Assembly: GCF_055900595.2 (NCBI RefSeq)
Contig: NZ_CM148325.1
Length of the DNA: 64,000 nucleotides
Strand: one strand, 5' to 3'
Numbering within the stretch: the stretch's first letter is position 1; every line of letters begins with the position of its first letter. Shown piece by piece: positions 1,067-64,000 of this stretch. The notes under the pieces were generated by a model. That model ran no database searches. It was not told where the DNA came from and saw only the letters and a program-made list of their open reading frames with translations. A program made the position numbers and the translations under genes.

Positions 1067-1070
<4 letters not shown>
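183..1070 (+). CDS. motA: Flagellar motor stator protein MotA (295 aa), GTG start
   Basis: ORF track 183..1070; translation [17 protein letters not shown]... and length match E. coli MotA; stop overlaps motB start (ATGA). Confidence 0.96.
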
Positions 1071-11130: not shown

Positions 11131-12279
11131 GTGTCTGACGAGAGCGACGACAAAACAGAAGCCCCCACACCTCACCGACTAGAAAAAGCGCGGGAAGAGG
11201 GGCAAATCCCGCGTTCCCGTGAACTGACCTCACTGCTGATTTTGCTGGTGGGCGTTAGTGTTATCTGGTTTGGCGGTGTGTCGCTGGCCCGTCGATTGTC
11301 GGGCATGCTCTCCGCTGGGCTGCATTTTGATCACAGTATTATCAAAGACCCGAATCTGATCCTCGGGCAGATTATTCTGCTGATCAGAGAAGCCATGCTG
11401 GCGCTGCTGCCACTGATTAGCGGCGTGGTACTGGTGGCGCTCATTTCTCCGGTCATGCTGGGAGGGCTGGTATTTAGCGGCAAATCCTTGCAGCCGAAGT
11501 TTTCCAAACTCAACCCGCTACCGGGCATTAAACGGATGTTCTCGGCTCAGACTGGCGCGGAGTTGCTTAAAGCAATTTTGAAAACCATCCTGGTTGGCAG
11601 CGTGACGGGGTTTTTTCTCTGGCATCACTGGCCGCAGATGATGCGCTTAATGGCCGAGTCTCCGATTACCGCCATGGGTAATGCGATGGATTTGGTAGGG
11701 CTATGCGCACTGCTGGTGGTGCTTGGTGTCATTCCAATGGTGGGATTTGACGTCTTTTTCCAAATCTTCAGCCACCTGAAAAAGCTGCGAATGTCGCGGC
11801 AGGATATTCGTGATGAGTTCAAACAAAGCGAAGGCGACCCCCATGTTAAAGGACGGATCCGTCAGATGCAGCGAGCTGCCGCACGGCGTCGGATGATGGC
11901 CGATGTGCCGAAAGCGGATGTCATTGTCAATAACCCGACCCACTATTCGGTAGCGTTGCAGTATGACGAAAACAAAATGAGCGCACCGAAAGTGGTCGCT
12001 AAAGGTGCAGGGCTGGTCGCGCTGCGCATTCGTGAAATTGGCGCTGAAAATAACGTCCCGACGCTTGAAGCGCCGCCGCTGGCGCGAGCGCTGTATCGAC
12101 ATGCGGAGATTGGTCAACAAATCCCGGGTCAACTGTACGCCGCGGTGGCGGAAGTGCTGGCCTGGGTCTGGCAACTGAAACGCTGGCGTCTGGCTGGTGG
12201 ACAGCGCCCTGTACAACCTACTCATCTTCCGGTGCCGGAAGCCCTGGATTTTATTAACGAGAAACCGACCCATGAGTAA
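11131..12279 (+). CDS. flhB: Flagellar type III export gate protein FlhB (382 aa), GTG start
   Basis: ORF track; MSDESDDKTEAPTPHRLEKAREEGQIPRSRELTSL... Confidence 0.95.
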   Translation: MSDESDDKTEAPTPHRLEKAREEGQIPRSRELTSLLILLVGVSVIWFGGVSLARRLSGMLSAGLHFDHSIIKDPNLILGQIILLIREAMLALLPLISGVVLVALISPVMLGGLVFSGKSLQPKFSKLNPLPGIKRMFSAQTGAELLKAILKTILVGSVTGFFLWHHWPQMMRLMAESPITAMGNAMDLVGLCALLVVLGVIPMVGFDVFFQIFSHLKKLRMSRQDIRDEFKQSEGDPHVKGRIRQMQRAAARRRMMADVPKADVIVNNPTHYSVALQYDENKMSAPKVVAKGAGLVALRIREIGAENNVPTLEAPPLARALYRHAEIGQQIPGQLYAAVAEVLAWVWQLKRWRLAGGQRPVQPTHLPVPEALDFINEKPTHE

Positions 12280-22951: not shown

Positions 22952-25099
<2,148 letters not shown>

Positions 25100-25151: not shown

Positions 25152-25970
25152 TCAGAAAAGAGAAGATTGCTGTGGAATAGCCGGAACTGCTCCGATCTCT
25201 GGAAGCGTTTTACGTAAGTCTTCCCACAGGGTATGTACCAGTTCCGGTGCCTGGGCAATATCTGGCGTATGTAAAAAAAGATAAGGCGTAGTGGTCTGAT
25301 GCCACTGCGCTAATTTTTGTAACCAAACCTGAAACAACTCTCGGTTTTGCGTCATATCATCACTACCGATAAAACGGATCAGCGGATTTGTCGCCGTCAG
25401 CACAGCATGTACGGGAACTTTAGGTTTTTTCCGTTGAGCGTCGCGAATAGCTTCACTGTGTGGGCGTGCTGCATGAACCGGGCGGCTGTCTAAAATCACC
25501 CGATTAACGCCGCGCTGATGTAAACCGCGATTAAGTGTTTGTTCCTCTTCCCCTTTGGCGAAAAACTGTGGATGTCGGACTTCCACACCATAATTAAACT
25601 CGCCGGGAAGAGAGTCGAGAAAATGCCAAAGCGCAGGCAGATCCCGTGGGCCAAATGTGGCAGGCAGTTGCAGCCAGTATTGCCCAATGCGCGGCGCTAA
25701 CGGTGACAAGCGAGTCAAAAATCCAGTTACTAAATCATCGCAATGCCGTAATGCTGCCTGATGCGAAATGGTCGCCGGAAACTTAAAACAGAAGCGAAAA
25801 TTATCTGTGGTCTGCTCACGCCAGCGCAGGACAACCTCGGGTTTCGGCAGAGCGTATAGCGTGGTGTTGCCCTCCACACAGTTAAAATGGCGGGCATACT
25901 CTTCCAGGCTGGTTATCCCCAGACGGATCCATTTAGGATGCGACCATTGCGGCAGACCGATGTAAATCAT
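25152..25970 (-). CDS. yecE: YecE, DUF72-family protein (272 aa)
   Basis: ORF track; [42 protein letters not shown]... Confidence 0.9.
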
Positions 25971-26842: not shown

Positions 26843-28615
26843 ATGCGTACAGAATATTGTGGACAGCTCCGTTTGTCCCACGTGGGGCAGCAGGTGACTC
26901 TGTGTGGTTGGGTCAACCGTCGTCGTGATCTTGGTAGCCTGATCTTCATCGATATGCGCGACCGCGAAGGTATCGTGCAGGTATTTTTCGATCCGGATCG
27001 TGCGGACGCGTTAAAGCTGGCCTCTGAACTGCGTAATGAGTTCTGCATTCAGGTCACGGGCACCGTACGTGCGCGTGACGAAAAAAATATCAACCGCGAT
27101 ATGGCGACCGGCGAAATCGAAGTGCTGGCCTCCTCGCTGACCATCATCAACCGCGCAGACGTTCTGCCGCTTGACTCTAACCACGTCAACACCGAAGAAG
27201 CGCGACTGAAATACCGCTACCTCGACCTGCGTCGTCCGGAAATGGCTCAGCGCCTGAAAACCCGCGCTAAAATCACCAGCCTGGTGCGCCGTTTTATGGA
27301 TGACCACGGCTTCCTCGACATCGAAACTCCGATGCTGACCAAAGCCACGCCGGAAGGCGCGCGTGACTACCTGGTGCCTTCTCGTGTGCACAAAGGGAAA
27401 TTCTACGCACTGCCGCAGTCTCCGCAGCTGTTCAAACAGCTGCTGATGATGTCTGGTTTTGACCGCTACTATCAGATTGTAAAATGCTTCCGTGACGAAG
27501 ACCTGCGTGCTGATCGTCAGCCTGAATTCACCCAGATCGATGTGGAAACCTCTTTCATGACCGCGCCGCAAGTGCGTGAAGTGATGGAAGCGCTGGTACG
27601 CCATTTGTGGCTGGAAGTGAAGGGCGTGGATCTCGGTGATTTCCCTGTAATGACCTTTGCGGAAGCAGAACGCCGTTATGGTTCTGATAAACCGGATCTG
27701 CGTAACCCGATGGAACTGACTGACGTTGCTGATCTGCTGAAATCCGTTGAGTTCGCGGTATTCGCAGGTCCGGCGAACGATCCGAAAGGCCGCGTTGCCG
27801 CTCTGCGTGTTCCGGGTGGCGCATCGCTGACCCGTAAGCAGATCGACGAATACGGTAACTTCGTTAAAATCTACGGCGCGAAAGGTCTGGCGTACATCAA
27901 AGTTAACGAACGTGCGAAAGGTCTGGAAGGTATCAACAGCCCGGTAGCGAAGTTCCTCAACGCTGAAATCATCGAAGCCATCCTGGATCGTACTGCCGCG
28001 CAAGATGGCGATATGATTTTCTTCGGTGCTGATAACAAGAAAATTGTTGCCGACGCGATGGGCGCATTGCGTCTGAAAGTGGGTAAAGACCTTGGTCTGA
28101 CCGACGAAAGCAAATGGGCACCGCTGTGGGTTATCGACTTCCCGATGTTTGAAGACGACGGTGAAGGCGGCCTGACGGCAATGCACCATCCGTTCACCTC
28201 ACCGAAAGACATGACGGCGGCAGAGTTGAAAGCTGCACCGGAAAATGCGGTGGCGAACGCTTACGATATGGTCATCAATGGTTACGAAGTGGGCGGTGGT
28301 TCTGTGCGTATCCATAATGGGGATATGCAGCAGACGGTGTTTGGTATTCTGGGGATCAACGAAGAGGAACAGCGCGAGAAATTCGGCTTCCTGCTCGACG
28401 CCCTGAAATACGGTACTCCGCCGCACGCAGGTCTGGCATTCGGTCTTGACCGTCTGACCATGCTGCTGACCGGTACCGACAACATCCGTGACGTTATCGC
28501 CTTCCCGAAAACCACGGCGGCAGCGTGTCTGATGACCGAAGCGCCAAGCTTTGCTAACCCGACTGCTCTGTCCGAGCTGAGCATTCAGGTTGTGAAGAAG
28601 GCAGAGAATAATTGA
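26843..28615 (+). CDS. aspS: Aspartyl-tRNA synthetase AspS (590 aa)
   Basis: ORF track; [43 protein letters not shown]...; class II motifs. Confidence 0.97.
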
Positions 28616-28616
28616 T

Positions 28617-29060
28617 ATGACTTATAAGCGTCCCGTTTCTATTCTGGTGGTTATTTATGCGCAAGATACGAAACGGGTGCTGATGTTACAGCGGCGTGAT
28701 GATCCCGATTTCTGGCAGTCAGTAACCGGCAGTGTGGAAGAGGGGGAAACCGCGCCGCAAGCCGCCATGCGCGAAGTAAAGGAAGAGGTCACCATTGATG
28801 TTGTCGCTGAACAACTGGCCTTAATTGACTGTCAGCGCACGGTGGAGTTTGAAATTTTTTCACATTTACGTCATCGCTATGCGCCGGGCGTAACGCGTAA
28901 TACGGAATCTTGGTTCTGTCTTGCACTCCCGCACGAGCGCCAGATCGTTTTCACTGAACATCTGGCCTACAAGTGGCTTGATGCGCATGCTGCGGCGGCG
29001 CTCACAAAGTCATGGAGCAACCGGCAGGCGATTGAACAGTTTGTAATTAACGCTGCCTGA
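28617..29060 (+). CDS. nudB: Dihydroneopterin triphosphate pyrophosphatase NudB (Nudix hydrolase, 147 aa as called)
   Basis: ORF track; Nudix box [21 protein letters not shown]; starts 2 nt after aspS stop; in-frame TGA at 28593 excludes a longer N-terminus. Confidence 0.88.
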
Positions 29061-30385: not shown

Positions 30386-30443
30386 TAAGATTCAGGGAAT
30401 ATTCATTGCCGACTGGCAATTACTAGGGCAGGGAGTGCCTCTG

Positions 30444-31952
30444 ATGACAATGTTAAAAACAGTAAGATTCTGGCTCGTCGAATTAATACTGCTGGCAGTT
30501 GTGTTGCCCGTATTAGCGATAATTTTTTACTCCTGTACTCTATTTTTTCCTTTTTACGCCGAAGGCGGTATCTTGGAGTTTAGCGCCACACTAATAGTGA
30601 CTGCTTTAAGTGGTCTGGCGTTAGGAAGGGTAAGAAGTGCCTTTGTCCCGCTAAATTTATCATTCATTTCCCTGATCCTCCCGGAAACCCTGCTACTTTT
30701 TTATACACTTGTTGTCTGGCTAACATTACTTATTATTACGGATAGTGAGTTTAATAGTGGACTATTTTATACCGGGCAGGATTGGTTGGGCATTTTCAGC
30801 CTATTAACTGAGGCTGCGACGGAAGACGAATTTTTTACGCCATCGTTAATGCAGGTGGCTACGCCTGCGATACCGGCTGTGGGTATTCTGGTCTATATTG
30901 TCTCACTGACGCATGCTGCAAGAGGGCGAAACCGGCTGACGAACATTGTAGGATGGCGTTATATCGTAATCCCGGTTTTAATGGCGGTTATAAGCATTGC
31001 GGGATTACTCGCATGGCAAATCCATGACAGAAGTGAAAGAAAAGTGGTCAGTGTGCCAGAAACGCAGCTTTCTGAGCGCTTGGCATTAAAAGATTATTCT
31101 CCCTTTACCGCCAATAATAAATTAACACACCTCAATGAACAGGCCACGCTGGCGATAGCGAGTAACTGGCCGCAACTGAATGGCGCGACAGCGCTCTATC
31201 CACTGTATGCCTCGATGGCGCAAATGGTTTATCGCAATCTGAATGAGGAAAGTGCCGAGGATTATATAAAGTGCTGGAAAACCCAGGGAGCCTACACAGC
31301 TTTGATAGAAGGGCGCGCGGATCTTATTTTTGTCGCCGAACCCTCTGATGAGCAACGAGAGCAGGCGCGTAACAGTGGCGTTGGTTTGCATTTTTATCCT
31401 CTGGCGCGAGAGGCTTTTGTTTTTGTCACTCATAAAGATAATCCGGTTACAGCGTTGAGTGATAAACAGATCCGCCAAATCTATTCTGGCGACATCAATA
31501 ACTGGCAGGATGTTGGCGGGCGCGACGCACGGATCATGCCTTTTCAGCGACCGGAAGGCTCAGGTAGCCAGACAATTATGTTAGCGGCTGTGATGAAGCA
31601 GGAAAAAATGCGCAAACCGCTGGAAACGGAACGGATAAGCGAAATGCAGGGGTTGATACGTAATGTTGCCAGCTATCAGAACAGTACAAATGCTTTGGGG
31701 TATACGTTCCGGTACTACTCAACACAAATGCACCACAGCGATAATCTCCGCTTGCTAGCGGTAAATGGTATTGCGCCAACGGCAGAAAATATTCGCAGCG
31801 GGAAGTACCCCTATACGGTAACGGTTTATATGGTTAGCGCGGGAAGACCTGACGCGCAGGTGCAAAAAATAATCGACTGGTTTTTGAGTGCGCAGGGGCA
31901 GAAAATGGTCGCTGAAACCGGATATATCCCGTTGGGAAAATCAACCAGGTGA
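30444..31952 (+). CDS. Accessory membrane protein: about 190-aa multi-pass TM region fused to a C-terminal PstS-like periplasmic binding domain (502 aa from ATG 30444); function unknown
   Basis: ORF track 30435..31952; ATG 30444 follows RBS gggag; 5-6 hydrophobic segments then PstS-like residues (GSGSQT, YTFRYY); not recalled in K-12. Confidence 0.7.
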   Translation: MTMLKTVRFWLVELILLAVVLPVLAIIFYSCTLFFPFYAEGGILEFSATLIVTALSGLALGRVRSAFVPLNLSFISLILPETLLLFYTLVVWLTLLIITDSEFNSGLFYTGQDWLGIFSLLTEAATEDEFFTPSLMQVATPAIPAVGILVYIVSLTHAARGRNRLTNIVGWRYIVIPVLMAVISIAGLLAWQIHDRSERKVVSVPETQLSERLALKDYSPFTANNKLTHLNEQATLAIASNWPQLNGATALYPLYASMAQMVYRNLNEESAEDYIKCWKTQGAYTALIEGRADLIFVAEPSDEQREQARNSGVGLHFYPLAREAFVFVTHKDNPVTALSDKQIRQIYSGDINNWQDVGGRDARIMPFQRPEGSGSQTIMLAAVMKQEKMRKPLETERISEMQGLIRNVASYQNSTNALGYTFRYYSTQMHHSDNLRLLAVNGIAPTAENIRSGKYPYTVTVYMVSAGRPDAQVQKIIDWFLSAQGQKMVAETGYIPLGKSTR

Positions 31953-31964
31953 ACATACGTAAAT

Positions 31965-31993
31965 GGCAAAAACCATCACCAATGGTTTTTGCC
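31965..31993. terminator. Strong hairpin between convergent accessory ORF and yebB (putative bidirectional terminator)
   Basis: Perfect 12-bp stem ggcaaaaaccat / atggtttttgcc with cacc loop; no clean U-tract on either side. Confidence 0.55.
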
Positions 31994-32029
31994 ATGATAT
32001 GCGACTCACACTGCTTCTGGCAGCCTGGT

Positions 32030-32602
32030 TTAGTCATTATGACTGGCATGGATTAACGTCAACCCCGGATGATGCCACAAACTGGCTGGCGTGACGGTTT
32101 TACGCTCCCACGGAATAGAACCTAAGAACCAGAATTTCCAGAAAGTGAGTTTTGCATTTGGATTGCTGTTTAGCAGTTCTCCAAACGTCTCTATTTCACC
32201 CACCGGAATACATAACGCCTCTTTATAAATATCAAAAACGAATTTTGAACAGAACTGGCGGGAAGATTCGTATTTAAAACCGGTGTGGTAGAACTTATGC
32301 AACCGGGCAGGGACCTTTTCGACAAGAGCAAGTTTCTGCTCTGCGGTTAAACCTCCTGCCAGGCGGCGAACACCGTAGCGTTGCTCGGTCGACCGTTCAA
32401 TAAATCGTGACAAAGTTGTGATTGTGGAGAGCGGAACTCGACTCTCCGCAACCAGGTAATCATCACCGTCATGTCCGATGATTATCCCCACATGGTTGCT
32501 CCAGCATTTCGAGGCTGCAGAGATTTGCCCAAACAGGCGAGCACCGATGCAGGTAAAAACAATATCACCGGTTTCATATTTAGCTGGGTAATTTATTTTC
32601 AC
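32030..32602 (-). CDS. yebB: YebB, permuted papain-fold (NlpC/P60-superfamily, YiiX/YaeF-like) putative amidase (190 aa)
   Basis: ORF track; [46 protein letters not shown]... Cys/His pair; no signal peptide. Confidence 0.8.
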
Positions 32603-32695
32603 TATATCAATCCATTATTTATATATAAAACAGCATCTATCTTTCGTGATGGTAAAGCATTAGCATTGTATTGTAATAATGACAAGGAATGTTTT

Positions 32696-33520
32696 ATGCG
32701 GTTATTTATTAATGTGATAATGATAGTTTCGATCAGTCAATGCGTGAATGTATTTGCTCAAGATAATGTCATTCGCTATCCCTGGCGATATGGACGTATT
32801 TCTTTAAATGAGAATAATGAGTTTGTGCCTCAAATTATTCATATGCGTGATGATATCTACGGCGTGGGTGAAGTTGGTGCAAGCCTTAACGATGCGAGAA
32901 TGGCGCAAAGTGGTGTCACCGTGAGGCTTAGCGTTATACAGCAGGGGCAGGTGGTGAATGCTTTACTGGATTTCTACAATAGCAATAATCAACCTGCTTA
33001 TATATTTGAAGGCGGTTTATTGTCCTGCAATAAAGCCTTTGACATCACAACAAACAACATTGTCCTTGATGGGATGTGTGGAATTTATGATGGGGTCGAT
33101 GGCTGGCAAGTTATTCCTGCGGGTGAGCATTATAAAGAATCGTTTTCACTCACTCAGGCTTTTGAATTCTTGCCGGGAAAACATCATTATAAAATTAATG
33201 CCGGAGGTTTTATCATCAGAGTCGGGGATGATATTTTTGCAAGAGAAGATGCCGAAAGCATTCTTTTTGATTTGATTAACTGGCGATATGGCTATGTGCT
33301 AAAAAGTTATGAAAGGGTGTCAAAGGGGGATTTGATGGCAGGATATTATGCTCTGTATGAATACTCAGGCGCTGACATAATTGATGAGTATGATATTTAC
33401 TCAAACCAGGTGTCGATTGATCTTAATGGTGACGAGTTAGCACATACGGAGTCCTATCAGTGGCGAATTGATAGCGGAATGATCCCGGAAAAATTCAGCG
33501 TTCAGGGACTCGCTGAATGA
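32696..33520 (+). CDS. Accessory Sec-signal periplasmic/secreted protein of unknown function (274 aa from ATG 32696)
   Basis: ORF track 32471..33520 trimmed to ATG 32696 after RBS aagga; N-terminus MRLFINVIMIVSISQCVNVFA-QD is a signal peptide with VFA cleavage motif; AT-rich. Confidence 0.65.
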   Translation: MRLFINVIMIVSISQCVNVFAQDNVIRYPWRYGRISLNENNEFVPQIIHMRDDIYGVGEVGASLNDARMAQSGVTVRLSVIQQGQVVNALLDFYNSNNQPAYIFEGGLLSCNKAFDITTNNIVLDGMCGIYDGVDGWQVIPAGEHYKESFSLTQAFEFLPGKHHYKINAGGFIIRVGDDIFAREDAESILFDLINWRYGYVLKSYERVSKGDLMAGYYALYEYSGADIIDEYDIYSNQVSIDLNGDELAHTESYQWRIDSGMIPEKFSVQGLAE

Positions 33521-33557
33521 ATCGTCCTCTACCTGCTTGCCAGATACAGAGGCGCGG

Positions 33558-34127
33558 ATGAATTTATCAAGCGTATTCAATCAGCTTTTAATCTCATTAG
33601 CTCTTGCCGGGACGTTGATATCAAGCAGCTATCTCATGGAAGCTCACTACCCGCGTTTCAGGAAGCCAATTGCGTTCTTTTACTTCTTCTTAGCAATTTA
33701 TACCAGTTATGCTGCCGTTCTGGAGTATGAGTACCACCGCACTAGCTTGACTACGCTCGCAAAAGTTTCTTCGGTTCGTTATACCAGTAATTTTGAGCGT
33801 AGCGCCTCGCACTCCTGCAATTTACTGCGGGGAGGAAGGATTGATTGCACGGGGCTGTATGCCTATGACCTGACCTGGCAGATTGACGGTAAGACCTGGA
33901 ATTTGCATGTTGAGGACAAGCGTATAAAACCAGGATTCACCATGTGCGTGAAGGTTGTAAAAGATCGCCCCGCCATCGGGAAATCCTGTGAAAACGCGTT
34001 TTTCAATGTCAGCCCTTTGCCGATTCTGATAGCTATATGGGCAATCAGCGCATTTATATTTGCGGTCTTACTCCTTCACAGACTAAAAAAATGCCGCAAA
34101 TGGAAGCACGCCAGCAAGGGGCGTTGA
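33558..34127 (+). CDS. Accessory inner-membrane protein, 2 N-terminal TM + Cys-containing loop + C-terminal TM and basic tail (189 aa from ATG 33558)
   Basis: ORF track 33537..34127 (TTG) trimmed to ATG 33558 after RBS gagg; hydrophobic segments at about residues 8-27, 36-56, 163-183; 37 nt after upstream ORF. Confidence 0.6.
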   Translation: MNLSSVFNQLLISLALAGTLISSSYLMEAHYPRFRKPIAFFYFFLAIYTSYAAVLEYEYHRTSLTTLAKVSSVRYTSNFERSASHSCNLLRGGRIDCTGLYAYDLTWQIDGKTWNLHVEDKRIKPGFTMCVKVVKDRPAIGKSCENAFFNVSPLPILIAIWAISAFIFAVLLLHRLKKCRKWKHASKGR

Positions 34128-34229
34128 AAAATTGGGCATTAGAAGTGTGATGTAAGGGGGATTCATACAGAATTTCTGATGCTGTGAGCAAAAGGATTAT
34201 CATTTCTGAAATGATTTAATATCATCCCT

Positions 34230-34249
34230 CGCTGGATATCTATCCAGCA
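34230..34249 (+). promoter_or_regulatory. LexA (SOS) box of the ruvAB promoter
   Basis: cgCTGGatatctatCCAGca, the known CTGG-N8-CCAG variant SOS box, about 50 nt upstream of ruvA GTG. Confidence 0.85.
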
Positions 34250-34298
34250 TTTTTTTATCATACAGCATTATCTTTGATTCATTACGCAGGAGCGTCAT

Positions 34299-36075: not shown

Positions 36076-36861
36076 TTAGCTGGCCTGCTTTTTCATCATA
36101 CTGATAATAAATAACAGTGCCGCACATAGCACTACCGACGGACCCGCCGGCGTATCGTAAAATGCGGAAAAGGTTAAACCGCCAGTTACTGCCACCATTC
36201 CCACCAAAACAGCGACACCGGCCATCTGTTCCGGCGTGCGGGCAAAGCGACGCGCTGTAGCTGCAGGAATAATCAGCAGCGAAGTAATAATCAACGCGCC
36301 GACAAATTTCATCGCTACACCAATCGTCAATGCTGTCACCAGCATCAACAACAATTTCACGCGCTGTAATTTCACACCATCAACAAACGCCAGATCCGGG
36401 CTAATCGTCATTGACAGCAAATTGCGCCATTGCCAGAACAGAATCGCCACCACGATGACCACGCCAATCGCAATAGAGATGAGATCTTCTGGCGTCACTG
36501 CCAGCAAATCACCGAACAGGTAAGCCATCAAATCAACACGAATGTTAGACATCAGACTAACGACCACCAGGCCCAGCGACAGGGCACTGTGCGCCATAAT
36601 CCCTAATAACGTGTCGATCGCCAGCTGTGGGCGCTTCTCCAGCCATACCAGACCGCCCGCCAGCAGCAGCGTAACCGCAATCACCGCATAGAATGGATTA
36701 ACGTCCAGCAACAAACCAAACGCGACGCCAAGTAACGAGGCATGAGCCAGTGTATCACCGAAATAAGACATACGACGCCAGACCACAAACGAACCCAGCG
36801 GACCCGCGGCACAGGCGAGCATGATCCCGGCTAACCAACCAGGAAATAATAATTCAATCAT
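36076..36861 (-). CDS. znuB: Zinc ABC transporter permease ZnuB (261 aa)
   Basis: ORF track; [41 protein letters not shown]... Confidence 0.96.
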
Positions 36862-51407: not shown

Positions 51408-54154
<2,747 letters not shown>

Positions 54155-54177: not shown

Positions 54178-54833
54178 CTAGCGTAATGGAATGATATCGC
54201 CTTGCCAACCCTGTGATGAACGCTGACCGACTAACAATAATGAACCACGATCGGCGCGAACGATGAGACGACCATGTTCATCCCATAGTGCACTGTTACC
54301 ACGGGCATTTGCCATCAGCACGGCAATTGAGTACTGATGTGAAAAAAATTGTAAGCGGCGGGTCGACGCCAGCAGGTCGGGTTCCCCCAGACATTGCCCT
54401 GTCGTAAATAGTGAACAGGTCGGATCCATATCCATACCTTGCGGTTGTTCATCGACCACCGTGATGGTTCTGGAACGACGGCCCAGACATGCACCATGAC
54501 TCTGATGGTAGATCCCTGGCGTTTTTCGCCACGGTGCGAACACCGCAATTCCACGAATAAAGCGATCGTTATATTCAACGGGAAGGCCGGCAATGATGGT
54601 CATTCGCCAGGTCGTTGCAGCATAACAAAGCGGGTCTAACAGCGAGAGATCGGGGGGGCAGGAAGGGCACGTCGCGAATAATCACACCCCAGTAAAGAAA
54701 GCGATGGAAAAACTAACAGCTGACATTGTTGCCTGGCGGCGGCCCTCACAAACTCCAGATGATGAGCTACCTGTTCGGTCAGTGAGGTTTTACGAGGCTC
54801 ATATTGCGCTGCTGCAACTTTCCAGAACGACAT
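54178..54833 (-). pseudogene. yobB: yobB (carbon-nitrogen hydrolase family) split by a -1 frameshift in a G7/C7 homopolymer
   Basis: N-terminal ORF 54636..54833 (MSFWKVAAAQYEP...RRALPAPP) and C-terminal ORF 54178..54603 (MTIIAGLPVEY...) join into one protein if one base is added to the run at 54652-54658. Confidence 0.75.
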
Positions 54834-57302: not shown

Positions 57303-57959
57303 ATGAAACAGCCTGCGCCCGTTTATCAGAGAATTGCGGGTCATCAATGGCGACATATCTGGCTTTCAGGCGATATACACGGTTGTCTTGAGCAGTTGCG
57401 CCGCAAATTATGGCATTGTCGTTTTGATCCGTGGCGAGATTTACTTATCTCAGTGGGAGACGTTATCGATCGTGGGCCGCAAAGTTTACGTTGCCTGCAG
57501 TTACTGGAACAACATTGGGTTCGTGCGGTAAGAGGCAATCATGAACAGATGGCGATGGATGCGCTGGCATCCCAGCAGATGTCTTTGTGGTTGATGAATG
57601 GCGGCGACTGGTTTATTGCGCTGGCAGATAATCAACAGAAACAAGCGAAAACGGCGCTGGAAAAATGTCAGTATTTGCCCTTTATTCTTGAAGTACACAG
57701 TCGCACCGGCAAACATGTTATTGCCCATGCCGATTATCCGGATGATGTTTATGAATGGCAAAAGGACGTCGATTTGCATCAGGTCTTGTGGAGCCGCTCA
57801 CGATTACGTGAAGGCCAAAAAGGGCAGGGAATTACAGGTGCTGATCATTTCTGGTTTGGTCATACACCGTTGCGCCATCGCGTGGATATTGGCAACCTGC
57901 ATTATATTGATACCGGTGCTGTCTTTGGGGGAGAACTGACTCTTGTGCAATTGCAATAA
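57303..57959 (+). CDS. pphA: Serine/threonine protein phosphatase 1 PphA (PrpA), PPP-family metallophosphatase (218 aa)
   Basis: ORF track 57300..57959 (TTG) trimmed to ATG 57303 (MKQPAPVYQRIAGHQWRHIWLSGDIHGCLEQL...). Confidence 0.93.
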   Translation: MKQPAPVYQRIAGHQWRHIWLSGDIHGCLEQLRRKLWHCRFDPWRDLLISVGDVIDRGPQSLRCLQLLEQHWVRAVRGNHEQMAMDALASQQMSLWLMNGGDWFIALADNQQKQAKTALEKCQYLPFILEVHSRTGKHVIAHADYPDDVYEWQKDVDLHQVLWSRSRLREGQKGQGITGADHFWFGHTPLRHRVDIGNLHYIDTGAVFGGELTLVQLQ

Positions 57960-60128: not shown

Positions 60129-62762
60129 TTATTTGGGCAGCGCAGTTCCCCATTCACGCCACTCTTTCGGTTCACTTTCCTGCAACAGGAAGTGCTTGCC
60201 CTCCTGGGCTTTCGGTGCCAGTGGCGTACCCGGAGGCGTGGCGAAGGCAATGCCGCCACGGATAAACTGGTTAAAGGTGCCGGTTTTCACCACGCCGCCC
60301 GTCAGACCAAAGTCCAGACTGTAACCCGATGCCAACCAGAAGACGGAATTGTTACGCACCAGGTGTTGATAGCGTTTACTGATGCGCATCGCAATCATCA
60401 CGCGATCTGACAATGTCCCCAGCGTCATTCCGGTAACCGTACCAACTTCCAGACCACGGAACAGCACAGGCGTACCGATGCCTAACGAACCGGCTTCCGG
60501 CGCTTCAACAATAATGCTTAAGCCATCCAGGTAACGCGAATCAGTTATGGTGGCCTCTTGTAATTCAAAGTCGCGGCGAGGATTGCCCCGGCCAGGTTCG
60601 ACGTTGATATACGGCTGGAGGATAGTATCAAGATGCTCAACGCCAGCTGCCGAAATTTGCGGTGTGACCACTGAGAAGCGTGTACCACCGCGTGCAAAGG
60701 TCTGGACATATTCCGGATAGAGCACCGCCTTTGCCTGTACTTCATTGCGCGCGGTAATCAGATCCAGCGTCTGAATTTGCCCGATATCAATACCGAGATA
60801 GCGAATTGGCATCCCGACTGCCAGTTTTCCGGCATCGAAAGCGTGGAGCGTAATCTGTCCGCCAACCGCACGGGCCGCTGTTTCGGAAGCATACAGAATT
60901 CGCTTGTCACCTTTACGTTGGCTGGCGCTGGCACCGCTGAGGTTATCGAAGCTAATAGCCCCCTTTAATGCTCTGGAGAGTGGGGATGCCTGTACAGTCA
61001 GACCACTACCATTTAGCTGAACTTTCGCCCCACCTTCTGCCCAGAACACGCTGTTGCTGGTCAGAAGGTTGCGATACTCCGGCTTAATATGCAAATCGAT
61101 ATCAAACGCGTTAGCTCGCGGACGCACAGTAATAACTTCACCAACTTCAAATTTACGGTATAGCACTACCGATCCTGCCTGTACATCCGGCAGCGTCTCT
61201 GCACTCAAACTCACGGTTGTGGTGGGTAAATCGCTAAGGCTGTTCTCCAGCGCTTTTTCCAGATTGGCATACAGTGGATAGCTGGCTTTCATCTCGCCTT
61301 TATCGCCTGGCAGAATACGTATCCCGCCGTTAATCCATTCTGAGGCGCTGGCACCGAGAAACTCAACGCCATCCAGCCCCACCTTCACGTCGACACGGCT
61401 GTTGACGACAAATTTGCTATCGCCTTTTACCAGTTCGCGATGCTGAGGCTCGATGGCGACGGTAAAGGTGACGCCTTTGCTGGTGAGTTTACGATCAATA
61501 ACCTGGCCTACCTGCACGCCGTGAAGAATGAGCGGCTGACCAGCATCAATGCCGTAACTTTCTGGTGCTGTCAGGGTCAGTGTCAGAACATCCGGCTCTT
61601 GTAGCAGGGCTTTTTCGCCTGGCACAACAACGAACTCTTTGCGTGGCTCGCCATCGCCGGGCACCAACTCAAAGGTTTTTCCGGTCAGCAGGGCGCTGAG
61701 ATTGGCATCGCTAAGGGATAATTTCGGGTTGCGTAATTCGATGCGAGTATTTTCACGAAGCAGGGTGACGACGCTGGGATCAACGGTCATTTCCCCAGTG
61801 ACTTTACCACCAGGATTTAAATCCAGTTTAGTCAGCTGTCCGACTTCCAGCCCCTGATACATTAACGGCGTCGAGTCGGCGGTTAATCCGGCCCCACTCG
61901 GCAGTTCCAGTTTTATTATTACGCCACGCTGGCTGTGGGCGAGATCTTCATACAGACCAAAGGTATCTTCCGCCTCGGCAGGTTTCGACTCTTCAGGTGA
62001 ATCGAAGGCAATCGCACCGTTAACCAGTGCCGCCAGACTTTCCAGTTTCACCTTCGCGCCACTGATACTGACGTTGGCATCAACGCCAGAAACATTCCAG
62101 AAACGGCTACCTTTTTTCACCAGGTCGGTAAAACGCCGCTCGATCAGGACATCAATCACCACGCCTTGTTTATTGGGATTGATGGCATAGTCGTAGACTT
62201 TTCCCACCGGGATCTTGCGGAAATAGACCAATGAACCACTGTTCAGTGAACCGAGATCGGGGGCTTGCAGGTGGATCATCAGATCGCCATTATCCAGCCG
62301 ATACTTCGGTTGGGTATCGAGTGCGACAAAGTGATCCTGCTCTTTACCTTTACCCGGCATCATACCGATATAGTTACCACCGACGAGGGCATCCAGCCCG
62401 GAGACACCTGCCAGTGAGGCCTTTGGCGTCACCAGCCAGAACTGTGTCTCTTCGCGCAGCGCATCTTTCATATCAGACTTGATGCTGACCTTGACTTCAA
62501 TCTTACGAAGATCGTCGCTCAGGCTGATATCCTGCACAGTTCCGACTTCAACGCCCTGATAACGAACAGGGGTGCGGCCCGGGACAATACCATCCGCCGA
62601 CATAAAGTCGATGGTGACGGTATTACCCCGGTCCTGATAACTATCCCAAATCAGCCAACCGGCAATCATTAGCGCGATGAACGGCAGCAGCCAGAAAGGT
62701 GAGATACGGCGTTTATTTTTAATCTGCGCTTCAGTCGTCGAAGCGGGCGTTTCCTGACTCAT
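60129..62762 (-). CDS. letB: LetB (YebT), multi-MCE-domain envelope-spanning lipid tunnel protein (877 aa)
   Basis: ORF track 60129..62804 trimmed to ATG at 62762 ([39 protein letters not shown]...). Confidence 0.93.
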
Positions 62763-64000
62763 GTGCATCCCAAAGTAAGCGGCTGTCCAGCCATTCCACA
62801 GCAAGAATAGTCAAAATTACCGCTGCGCCGAAATAAAACGCAGCCGGTCCCATAGTAAAAGCGAGGATCTGATCGCGATTAATCAGCGACATGGTTAAAG
62901 ATATGACAAACAGGTCGAGCATCGACCAGCGACCAATCCAGGTCACCATCCGCAGTAACAGAATGCGTGTGCGTAAACCTTGCTGGCATTTAAAATGAAT
63001 ACTCAACAGTAAAGTGAACATGACGATCACTTTAGTAAACGGCACCAGAATACTGGCGATAAACACGATTCCGGCGACCGCAATGTTGCTACTTGCCAGC
63101 GACATAATCCCGGAAAGAATCGTATCTTCCTGCCGGCCACCATTCAGATAAATGATAGAAATAGGTAACAGGTTGGCAGGTAACAACAACACGATTGATG
63201 CTAACAGCGCCGCCCAGCACTTTTGCAGACTATGACGGCGACGCAGGCGTAGCGGGATATGGCAACGCGGGCAGCGACCACGCTGATCAGGATAGCCGGT
63301 AAAATGGCACCCAAGACAGACACGGAGTTTCTCGTCTCTACGTGTAGCGGGGAGCTGCGGATAAAATCGCGCCCACAGTTCCTCGACATTAAGATGTGAC
63401 AACGTCACCGTGGTCAATATCACTAATGCAACAAAAGAGAACAGACCAATACCCGCCTGAATGTGCGCATAATCCTGCACCTTTATAGAAGCAACGCCAA
63501 TACCGACCAGATAGATGTCCAGCATCACCCACTCTTTCAATCGCTCAAGCATCAGCAGTACCGGGCGTAGATTCATTCCCAGTCGGTTACCAAACCATAA
63601 ATAAGCTATGGAGGTCACCAGAATAAGGGGGGCACCAATAACGCAAAAAAAGACCATCGCCCCCGTTATTGCATCGCCCTGTTTGGTCATTTGCCAGATG
63701 CCTTGCATGACATTGGCGTCAATACGAATACCTAACAGCCAGATATGCAACAGCGGTTCGCCCCAGGCAAACGGCATCAGCAACAGCATGGTGAATGCCA
63801 TTGCTGCCAGGCGCGTTAGCGACCAGTCGCGCCCGTCAAGAATTTTTGCCTGACAGCGCGGACAATAGGCACTTTGATGAGAGTTTATCTCGGGTAGGCT
63901 AAACAGCATGTCACATTGCGGGCAACGTTGGTAATCACCACGCGGCAGTTCCTCGCCAATTGCCATCACTGTTATCTTTTTTGTCGGCGTAATTTGTGGT
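62731..64000 (-). CDS. letA: LetA (YebS), PqiA-like inner membrane protein; 5' end (a few codons) beyond window edge
   Basis: ORF track 62731..63969; reading frame stays open to position 64000 (...[11 protein letters not shown]...); overlaps letB start by 32 nt. Confidence 0.88.

Follow-up and report, generated by a model that had tools for sequence, protein, structure and literature searches.

Gene overlaps in a 64,000-nucleotide Escherichia coli segment as ordinary operon junctions, with letB probably initiated mainly on its own

Results

The gene overlaps in the DNA studied here, a stretch of 64,000 nucleotides that we call the window, are probably ordinary junctions between core E. coli genes that are transcribed together, and letB, which shares 32 nt with the end of letA, is probably translated mainly by independent initiation. 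As we discuss below, this conclusion draws on the orientation and spacing of the overlapping pairs, on the conservation of the letB start codon, and on published properties of the LetA-LetB complex.

Gene content of the window

BLAST against 5,426 complete E. coli genomes identified the window as an E. coli chromosomal segment, and genes were called by transferring RefSeq coding sequences from two genomes. The resulting set of 62 genes begins with motA at 183 and ends with letA, which runs past the window end at 64000. Reading frames are intact in all of these genes except yobB (54178-54833), where a frameshift near 54658 reflects the loss of one C from a C8 run (C8 to C7); yobB is either a pseudogene or the product of a homopolymer sequencing error. 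Identity to strain BE2-5 is a mosaic, with values of 99.8-100% from motA to torY (window 1-20300) and of 94-98% from torZ to hexR (20300-48000), and this pattern suggests a recombination boundary near the torY/torZ junction.

Overlaps and tight junctions

In seven neighbouring pairs of the window, the two genes point the same way and the downstream gene starts before the upstream one has ended. Six of them have short overlaps and are given here together with ptrB/exoX, which lacks this arrangement; the seventh, letA/letB, is described further below.

1067-1070, plus strand: motA>motB, 4-nt overlap, ATGA
12272-12279, plus strand: flhB>flhA, 8-nt overlap, ATGAGTAA; no well-placed Shine-Dalgarno sequence
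14350, plus strand: flhA>flhE, 1-nt overlap, TAATG
23920-23923, minus strand: cmoA>cmoB, 4-nt overlap, ATGA
25967-25970, minus strand: yecD>yecE, 4-nt overlap, ATGA; no well-placed Shine-Dalgarno sequence
36858-36861, minus strand: znuC>znuB, 4-nt overlap, ATGA
53492-53495, ptrB on the plus strand and exoX on the minus strand: convergent genes, with both stop codons held in the palindrome TTAA

The original prediction had counted eight start/stop overlaps. Its seven same-strand pairs hold, the eighth, ptrB/exoX, proved to be a convergent stop/stop junction, and in the pair that it ordered as yecE/yecD the upstream gene is yecD. It had also described the core genes as organised in compact operons, which is correct, and the accessory ORFs as free of start/stop overlaps with their core neighbours, which holds; one of these, a 349-aa ORF, shares 93-132 nt with the divergent yebB allele in a head-to-head overlap. 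Besides ptrB/exoX, one other pair is tightly joined tail to tail: the convergent genes pphA and yebW have zero spacing at 57959/57960, where the stop TAA directly adjoins TTA, the stop on the reverse strand.

Overlaps were found in 7 of the 44 co-directional neighbour pairs (16%). A survey of 720 genomes reported an overlap frequency of ~15% in most prokaryotic groups. The overlap frequency of the window is thus typical, with no enrichment, because it matches this background and because the spacings are the known enriched ones. We also considered misannotated starts as a source of the overlaps and rejected them, as the alternative starts that would remove an overlap would take between 6 and 45 residues off the N-terminus; flhA alone has another start close by (Met7).

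The 349-aa ORF belongs to an accessory island between ruvC and ruvA (30386-34298), which was found at 80% coverage or more in 8 of the 5,426 complete E. coli genomes. The island encodes a 505-aa protein with a C-terminal PstS-like binding domain, two further proteins with no family match (349 aa and ~181-196 aa), and a yebB allele that is 80% identical to that of K-12. NCBIfam and PADLOC scans of the island returned the PstS-like match only, with no match from PADLOC.

The aspS>nudB junction also differs among strains. Many E. coli strains, including the K-12-like BE2-5, carry a 125-bp ERIC-like repeat between these genes; this repeat is absent from the window, so a nudB ATG falls 1 nt past the aspS TGA (28613-28619, TGAtATG). 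In K-12-like strains, the ERIC-like insert follows the second codon of nudB and provides a new GTG start. On an identical insert-free sequence, RefSeq gives nudB a non-canonical ATA start, creating an 8-nt overlap with aspS, and this assignment looks like a length-matching artefact.

Spacing and translational coupling

According to a review of translational coupling, spacings of -4, -1, and -8 are enriched and efficient, and systematic constructs were coupled equally well at spacings from -4 to +3. All six short overlaps in the window fall within this efficient range (~-4 to +3, plus the enriched -8 and -1 spacings), and by spacing and motif they are textbook members of the termination-reinitiation class (4-nt NTGA, 1-nt TRATG, and 8-nt overlaps; Huber et al., 2019; Brown & Wade, 2025). 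The letA/letB pair, with a spacing of -32, lies outside the range of demonstrated coupling, and the ptrB and exoX genes are convergent.

The original prediction took all of the overlaps, letA/letB included, to indicate translational coupling, which in its full form would mean that they exist for termination-reinitiation and signal it. We regard this as unlikely for the set as a whole, and different pairs fare differently. For the short overlaps the idea is plausible, and these junctions may well be good substrates for coupling. First, their lengths of 4, 1, and 8 nt correspond to the enriched, efficient spacings. Second, four of five native E. coli pairs with 4-nt overlaps were coupled in reporter assays, and motAB, alone among the window pairs, is cited as an experimentally described case of coupling. 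Third, flhA and yecE would be the best candidates for dependence on the upstream gene, an expectation that we infer from their lack of a well-placed Shine-Dalgarno sequence. For ptrB/exoX, coupling is impossible because the genes are convergent, and for letA/letB the evidence presented below is contrary.

Coupling neither requires an overlap nor follows from one, because E. coli bioBF, a pair with a 4-nt overlap, was not coupled, because all spacings from -4 to +3 are equally efficient, and because tight junctions without overlap exist. In the window, the non-overlapping junctions aspS>nudB (+1), cheR>cheB (+2), yobA>copD (+3), and motB>cheA (+4) lie in or next to the -4 to +3 range and, judged by spacing, are equally good candidates for coupling. 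Sequence alone is no proof of coupling.

The letA/letB overlap and the letB start codon

The window contains the LetAB (YebST) MCE lipid-transport operon, in which PqiA-family LetA is followed by the seven-MCE-domain LetB. LetA matched chain A of PDB entry 9n8w (9n8w_A, E = 2e-276), LetB matched 9n8w_B, and orthologues of the two proteins carry PF04403 and PF02470. The features of this locus are as follows.

60129-62762, minus strand: letB (yebT) coding sequence, 877 aa
62731-64000, minus strand: letA (yebS) coding sequence, ~14 nt of the 5' end lying outside the window
62731-62762, minus strand: letA/letB overlap, 32 nt, with the letB frame +1 relative to letA
62760-62762, minus strand: letB start codon ATG, kept in 81 of 81 Enterobacteriaceae loci
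62731-62733, minus strand: letA stop codon TGA, inside letB codons Thr10-Glu11
62766-62768, minus strand: another in-frame ATG, 6 nt before the letB start (would give MHMSQ...), present in 61 of 81 loci
62768-62771, minus strand: GGGA, weak letB Shine-Dalgarno sequence, formed by the LetA Trp415-Asp416 codons (UGGGAU), 4-5 nt before the ATG
62717-62812, minus strand: block with reduced synonymous variation, from ~-50 to +45 relative to the letB ATG

The overlap codes for residues H418-D427 of LetA plus its stop codon and for residues M1-E11 of LetB. The 32-nt length given by the original prediction was exact. RefSeq annotates the same overlap, with the same starts and stops, in the corresponding region of another genome (~98.5% identical), the chains of 9n8w have the expected ends (...ESGNARFDD for LetA and MSQETP for the beginning of LetB), and a native 32-bp letA/letB overlap is stated in a 2026 Nature paper (PMC13017536). 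The overlap itself is thus already known.

When we compared 80 species-level Enterobacteriaceae loci with the window (81 loci), the overlap was 32 nt in 77 and 44 nt in 4. In the latter four loci, a TGA to GGA change, which is synonymous in letB (ACU to ACG), lengthens LetA by 4 aa to the next TAA. Given the base composition, the probability that the letA frame runs on through 9 or more further codons after an internal start is ~0.65. The length of the overlap is therefore what chance would give, and conservation of the letB ATG is the non-random part. The in-frame ATG at 62766-62768 is not a conserved letB start; it lacks a usable Shine-Dalgarno sequence, and the E. coli species representative (L003) does not have this ATG.

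It is exceedingly improbable that the overlap is an annotation artefact and that letB truly starts past the letA stop. All that speaks for this reading is that start calls can in general be wrong. The original prediction had named alternative starts that remove the overlaps as grounds for refutation, and for letB this refutation fails, with the nearest non-overlapping canonical start at codon 25 or later. In each of the 81 loci, a canonical in-frame start beyond the letA stop is reached only 72 nt or more from the ATG, at or within the transmembrane helix; 5 of the 81 have no such start within 150 nt of the letA stop. Moreover, the LetB of the solved complex (9n8w) was expressed at full length, beginning MSQETP.... 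An N-terminal extension of LetB from a TTG at 62804 was also rejected, as variation upstream of the ATG hits second positions of codons in that frame and 3 loci lack the TTG.

Sequence constraint around the letB start

The letB Shine-Dalgarno sequence has the correct spacing, is predicted to form a duplex of -4.0 kcal/mol with the anti-Shine-Dalgarno sequence, and occupies nearly invariant alignment columns; on its 5' side are invariant U-rich leucine codons (UUA CUU). Over 66 ungapped loci, mean synonymous-site entropy was 1.11 bits for letA and 1.16 bits for letB, and the lowest 12-codon windows of both genes were at the junction, with values of 0.09-0.3 bits. The constrained block is wider than the 32-nt dual-coding part. 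The letB initiation region accounts for part of this constraint, with the portion from ~-50 to -20 only partly explained, and the ~50 nt of constraint upstream of the ATG is more than a minimal ribosome-binding site would require. The upstream portion of the block contains invariant rare codons (ACU AUU CUU), and a small hairpin, GGCUGGACAGCC, is predicted within the block at 62781-62792.

Constraint at the nucleotide level from ~-50 to +45 and small predicted hairpins, both at 62781-62792 and around the letA stop, would fit a mechanism in which RNA structure hides the letB initiation region and is opened by ribosomes translating letA. We consider this mechanism improbable. The predicted fold of the junction was no more stable than that of shuffled sequence (z = +0.29), the Shine-Dalgarno sequence and AUG are predicted to be partly accessible, the hairpin at 62781-62792 is missing in orthologues L088 and L091, and an Rfam search of the junction gave no match. 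A structured RNA element at the junction was rejected on the same stability and Rfam results, together with an alifold analysis of the junction that gave weak local hairpins only. A search for a sigma-70-like internal promoter for letB found none.

Translation of letB

Our proposed mechanism relies on a ribosome-binding site built into letA. The letB start lies inside letA, one codon and one base past the SRLLWD codons, and the Trp-Asp codons of this conserved LetA motif supply the letB ribosome-binding site. The letA frame then continues into letB until it meets a stop. Translation of letB would come mainly from fresh initiation at its own site, to which ribosomes finishing letA may make at most a minor contribution.

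Three results lead us to infer that letB mostly initiates independently and to disfavour tight coupling to letA. First, in the systematic constructs coupling fell as the overlap grew and was absent at -25 nt, although these were synthetic constructs and the review stresses sequence context. Second, the complex contains six LetB subunits and one LetA subunit (PMC13017536), a stoichiometry that 1:1 reinitiation cannot supply. Third, a refactored plasmid in which letA and letB do not overlap was the functional template for a deep mutational scan (PMC13017536). That letB has a Shine-Dalgarno sequence of its own, weak but correctly placed, also speaks against tight coupling. All three results count against the coupling interpretation of the original prediction as it applies to this pair, as does the variation of overlap length among orthologues. 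In favour of that interpretation, the letB Shine-Dalgarno sequence is weak, and its duplex energy of -4.0 kcal/mol could favour some dependence on letA translation. A literature search combining yebS, yebT, and ribosome profiling found no paper.

A different route between the genes would be a low-level +1 slip at the conserved CUU-UGG (62770-62775) that yields a LetA-LetB fusion polypeptide, and we regard such slippage as having very little chance of being real. No stop codon interrupts the +1 frame over the 48 nt that precede the letB ATG. If the slip did occur, both of the joined ends would be cytoplasmic, as topology allows, and the fusion could seed assembly of the 1:6 complex. The junction shares with the programmed +1 site of prfB (CUU UGA C) a downstream frame in the +1 register and a CUU U sequence, here at 62772-62775. 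In prfB, however, the A site holds a stop codon, whereas the letA/letB site has UGG, with neither a stop nor a slow codon. A Shine-Dalgarno-like stimulator 3 nt upstream of CUU U is absent, the sequence there being AGCCGCUUA, and CUU U is replaced by AUC U in orthologue L086 and by AUU U in L091. Programmed frameshifting of the prfB type was accordingly rejected, given the UGG codon in the A site, the lack of a stimulator, and the loss of the motif in these orthologues. A metagenome contig (L092, 3501-5744) contains one 747-aa frame (protein P0236) with both PqiA (PF04403) and MlaD/MCE (PF02470) domains, and this protein is a fusion of the two partners that arose naturally or else the result of an assembly frameshift.

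Evolution and protein context of the overlap

Distant LetAB orthologues were found by a representative search and recognised mostly by synteny with prc-proQ or rsmF; the L090 orthologue was recognised by a downstream gene with a LetB-like N-terminus. Overlaps among these orthologues were 56 nt (LetA identity 50%), 38 nt (44%), 11 nt (36%), and 8 nt (38%), and in one distant orthologue letA and letB are 25 nt apart, with no overlap. In the window and in the orthologues with 56-, 38-, and 11-nt overlaps, the letB ATG is in the second codon after the LetA motif SRL[L/I]W[D/K]. The LetA tail past this motif varies from 3 to 18 residues among orthologues. The position of the letB start is old, and the LetA tail, and hence the length of the overlap, drifts between lineages.

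LetA residues 419-427 and LetB residues 1-13 are unresolved in cryo-EM (PMC13017536), and the overlap covers only disordered tails of both proteins. A long out-of-frame overlap is tolerated because only these disordered tails are encoded. The letA/letB overlap is best read as a tolerated by-product, with its length set by where the letA frame meets a stop.

Discussion

The closest described system is letAB of E. coli K-12 (yebST; Isom et al., 2020; Santarossa et al., 2026; PMC13017536), which shares its genes, its start and stop codons, and its out-of-frame overlap of 32 bp with the window. The K-12 proteins (9n8w chains) match LetA and LetB of the window nearly residue for residue, and the DNA differs only allelically, with ~97-98% identity to the best RefSeq genomes; the window strain, unlike K-12, has the extra non-conserved ATG 6 nt upstream of the letB start. 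The paralogous PqiA-MCE pair of E. coli, pqiA/pqiB, has the same gene order as letAB and the same WD motif near the end of its PqiA-family protein. Unlike letA and letB, pqiA and pqiB do not overlap but are separated by 4 nt, and the next junction, pqiB>pqiC, overlaps by 4 nt.

The analysis makes practical points about the reading of gene overlaps in bacterial operons. An overlap alone is no proof of translational coupling, and one convergent overlap in the window had been miscounted as a start/stop overlap. Beyond correct annotation, the importance of these junctions is small.
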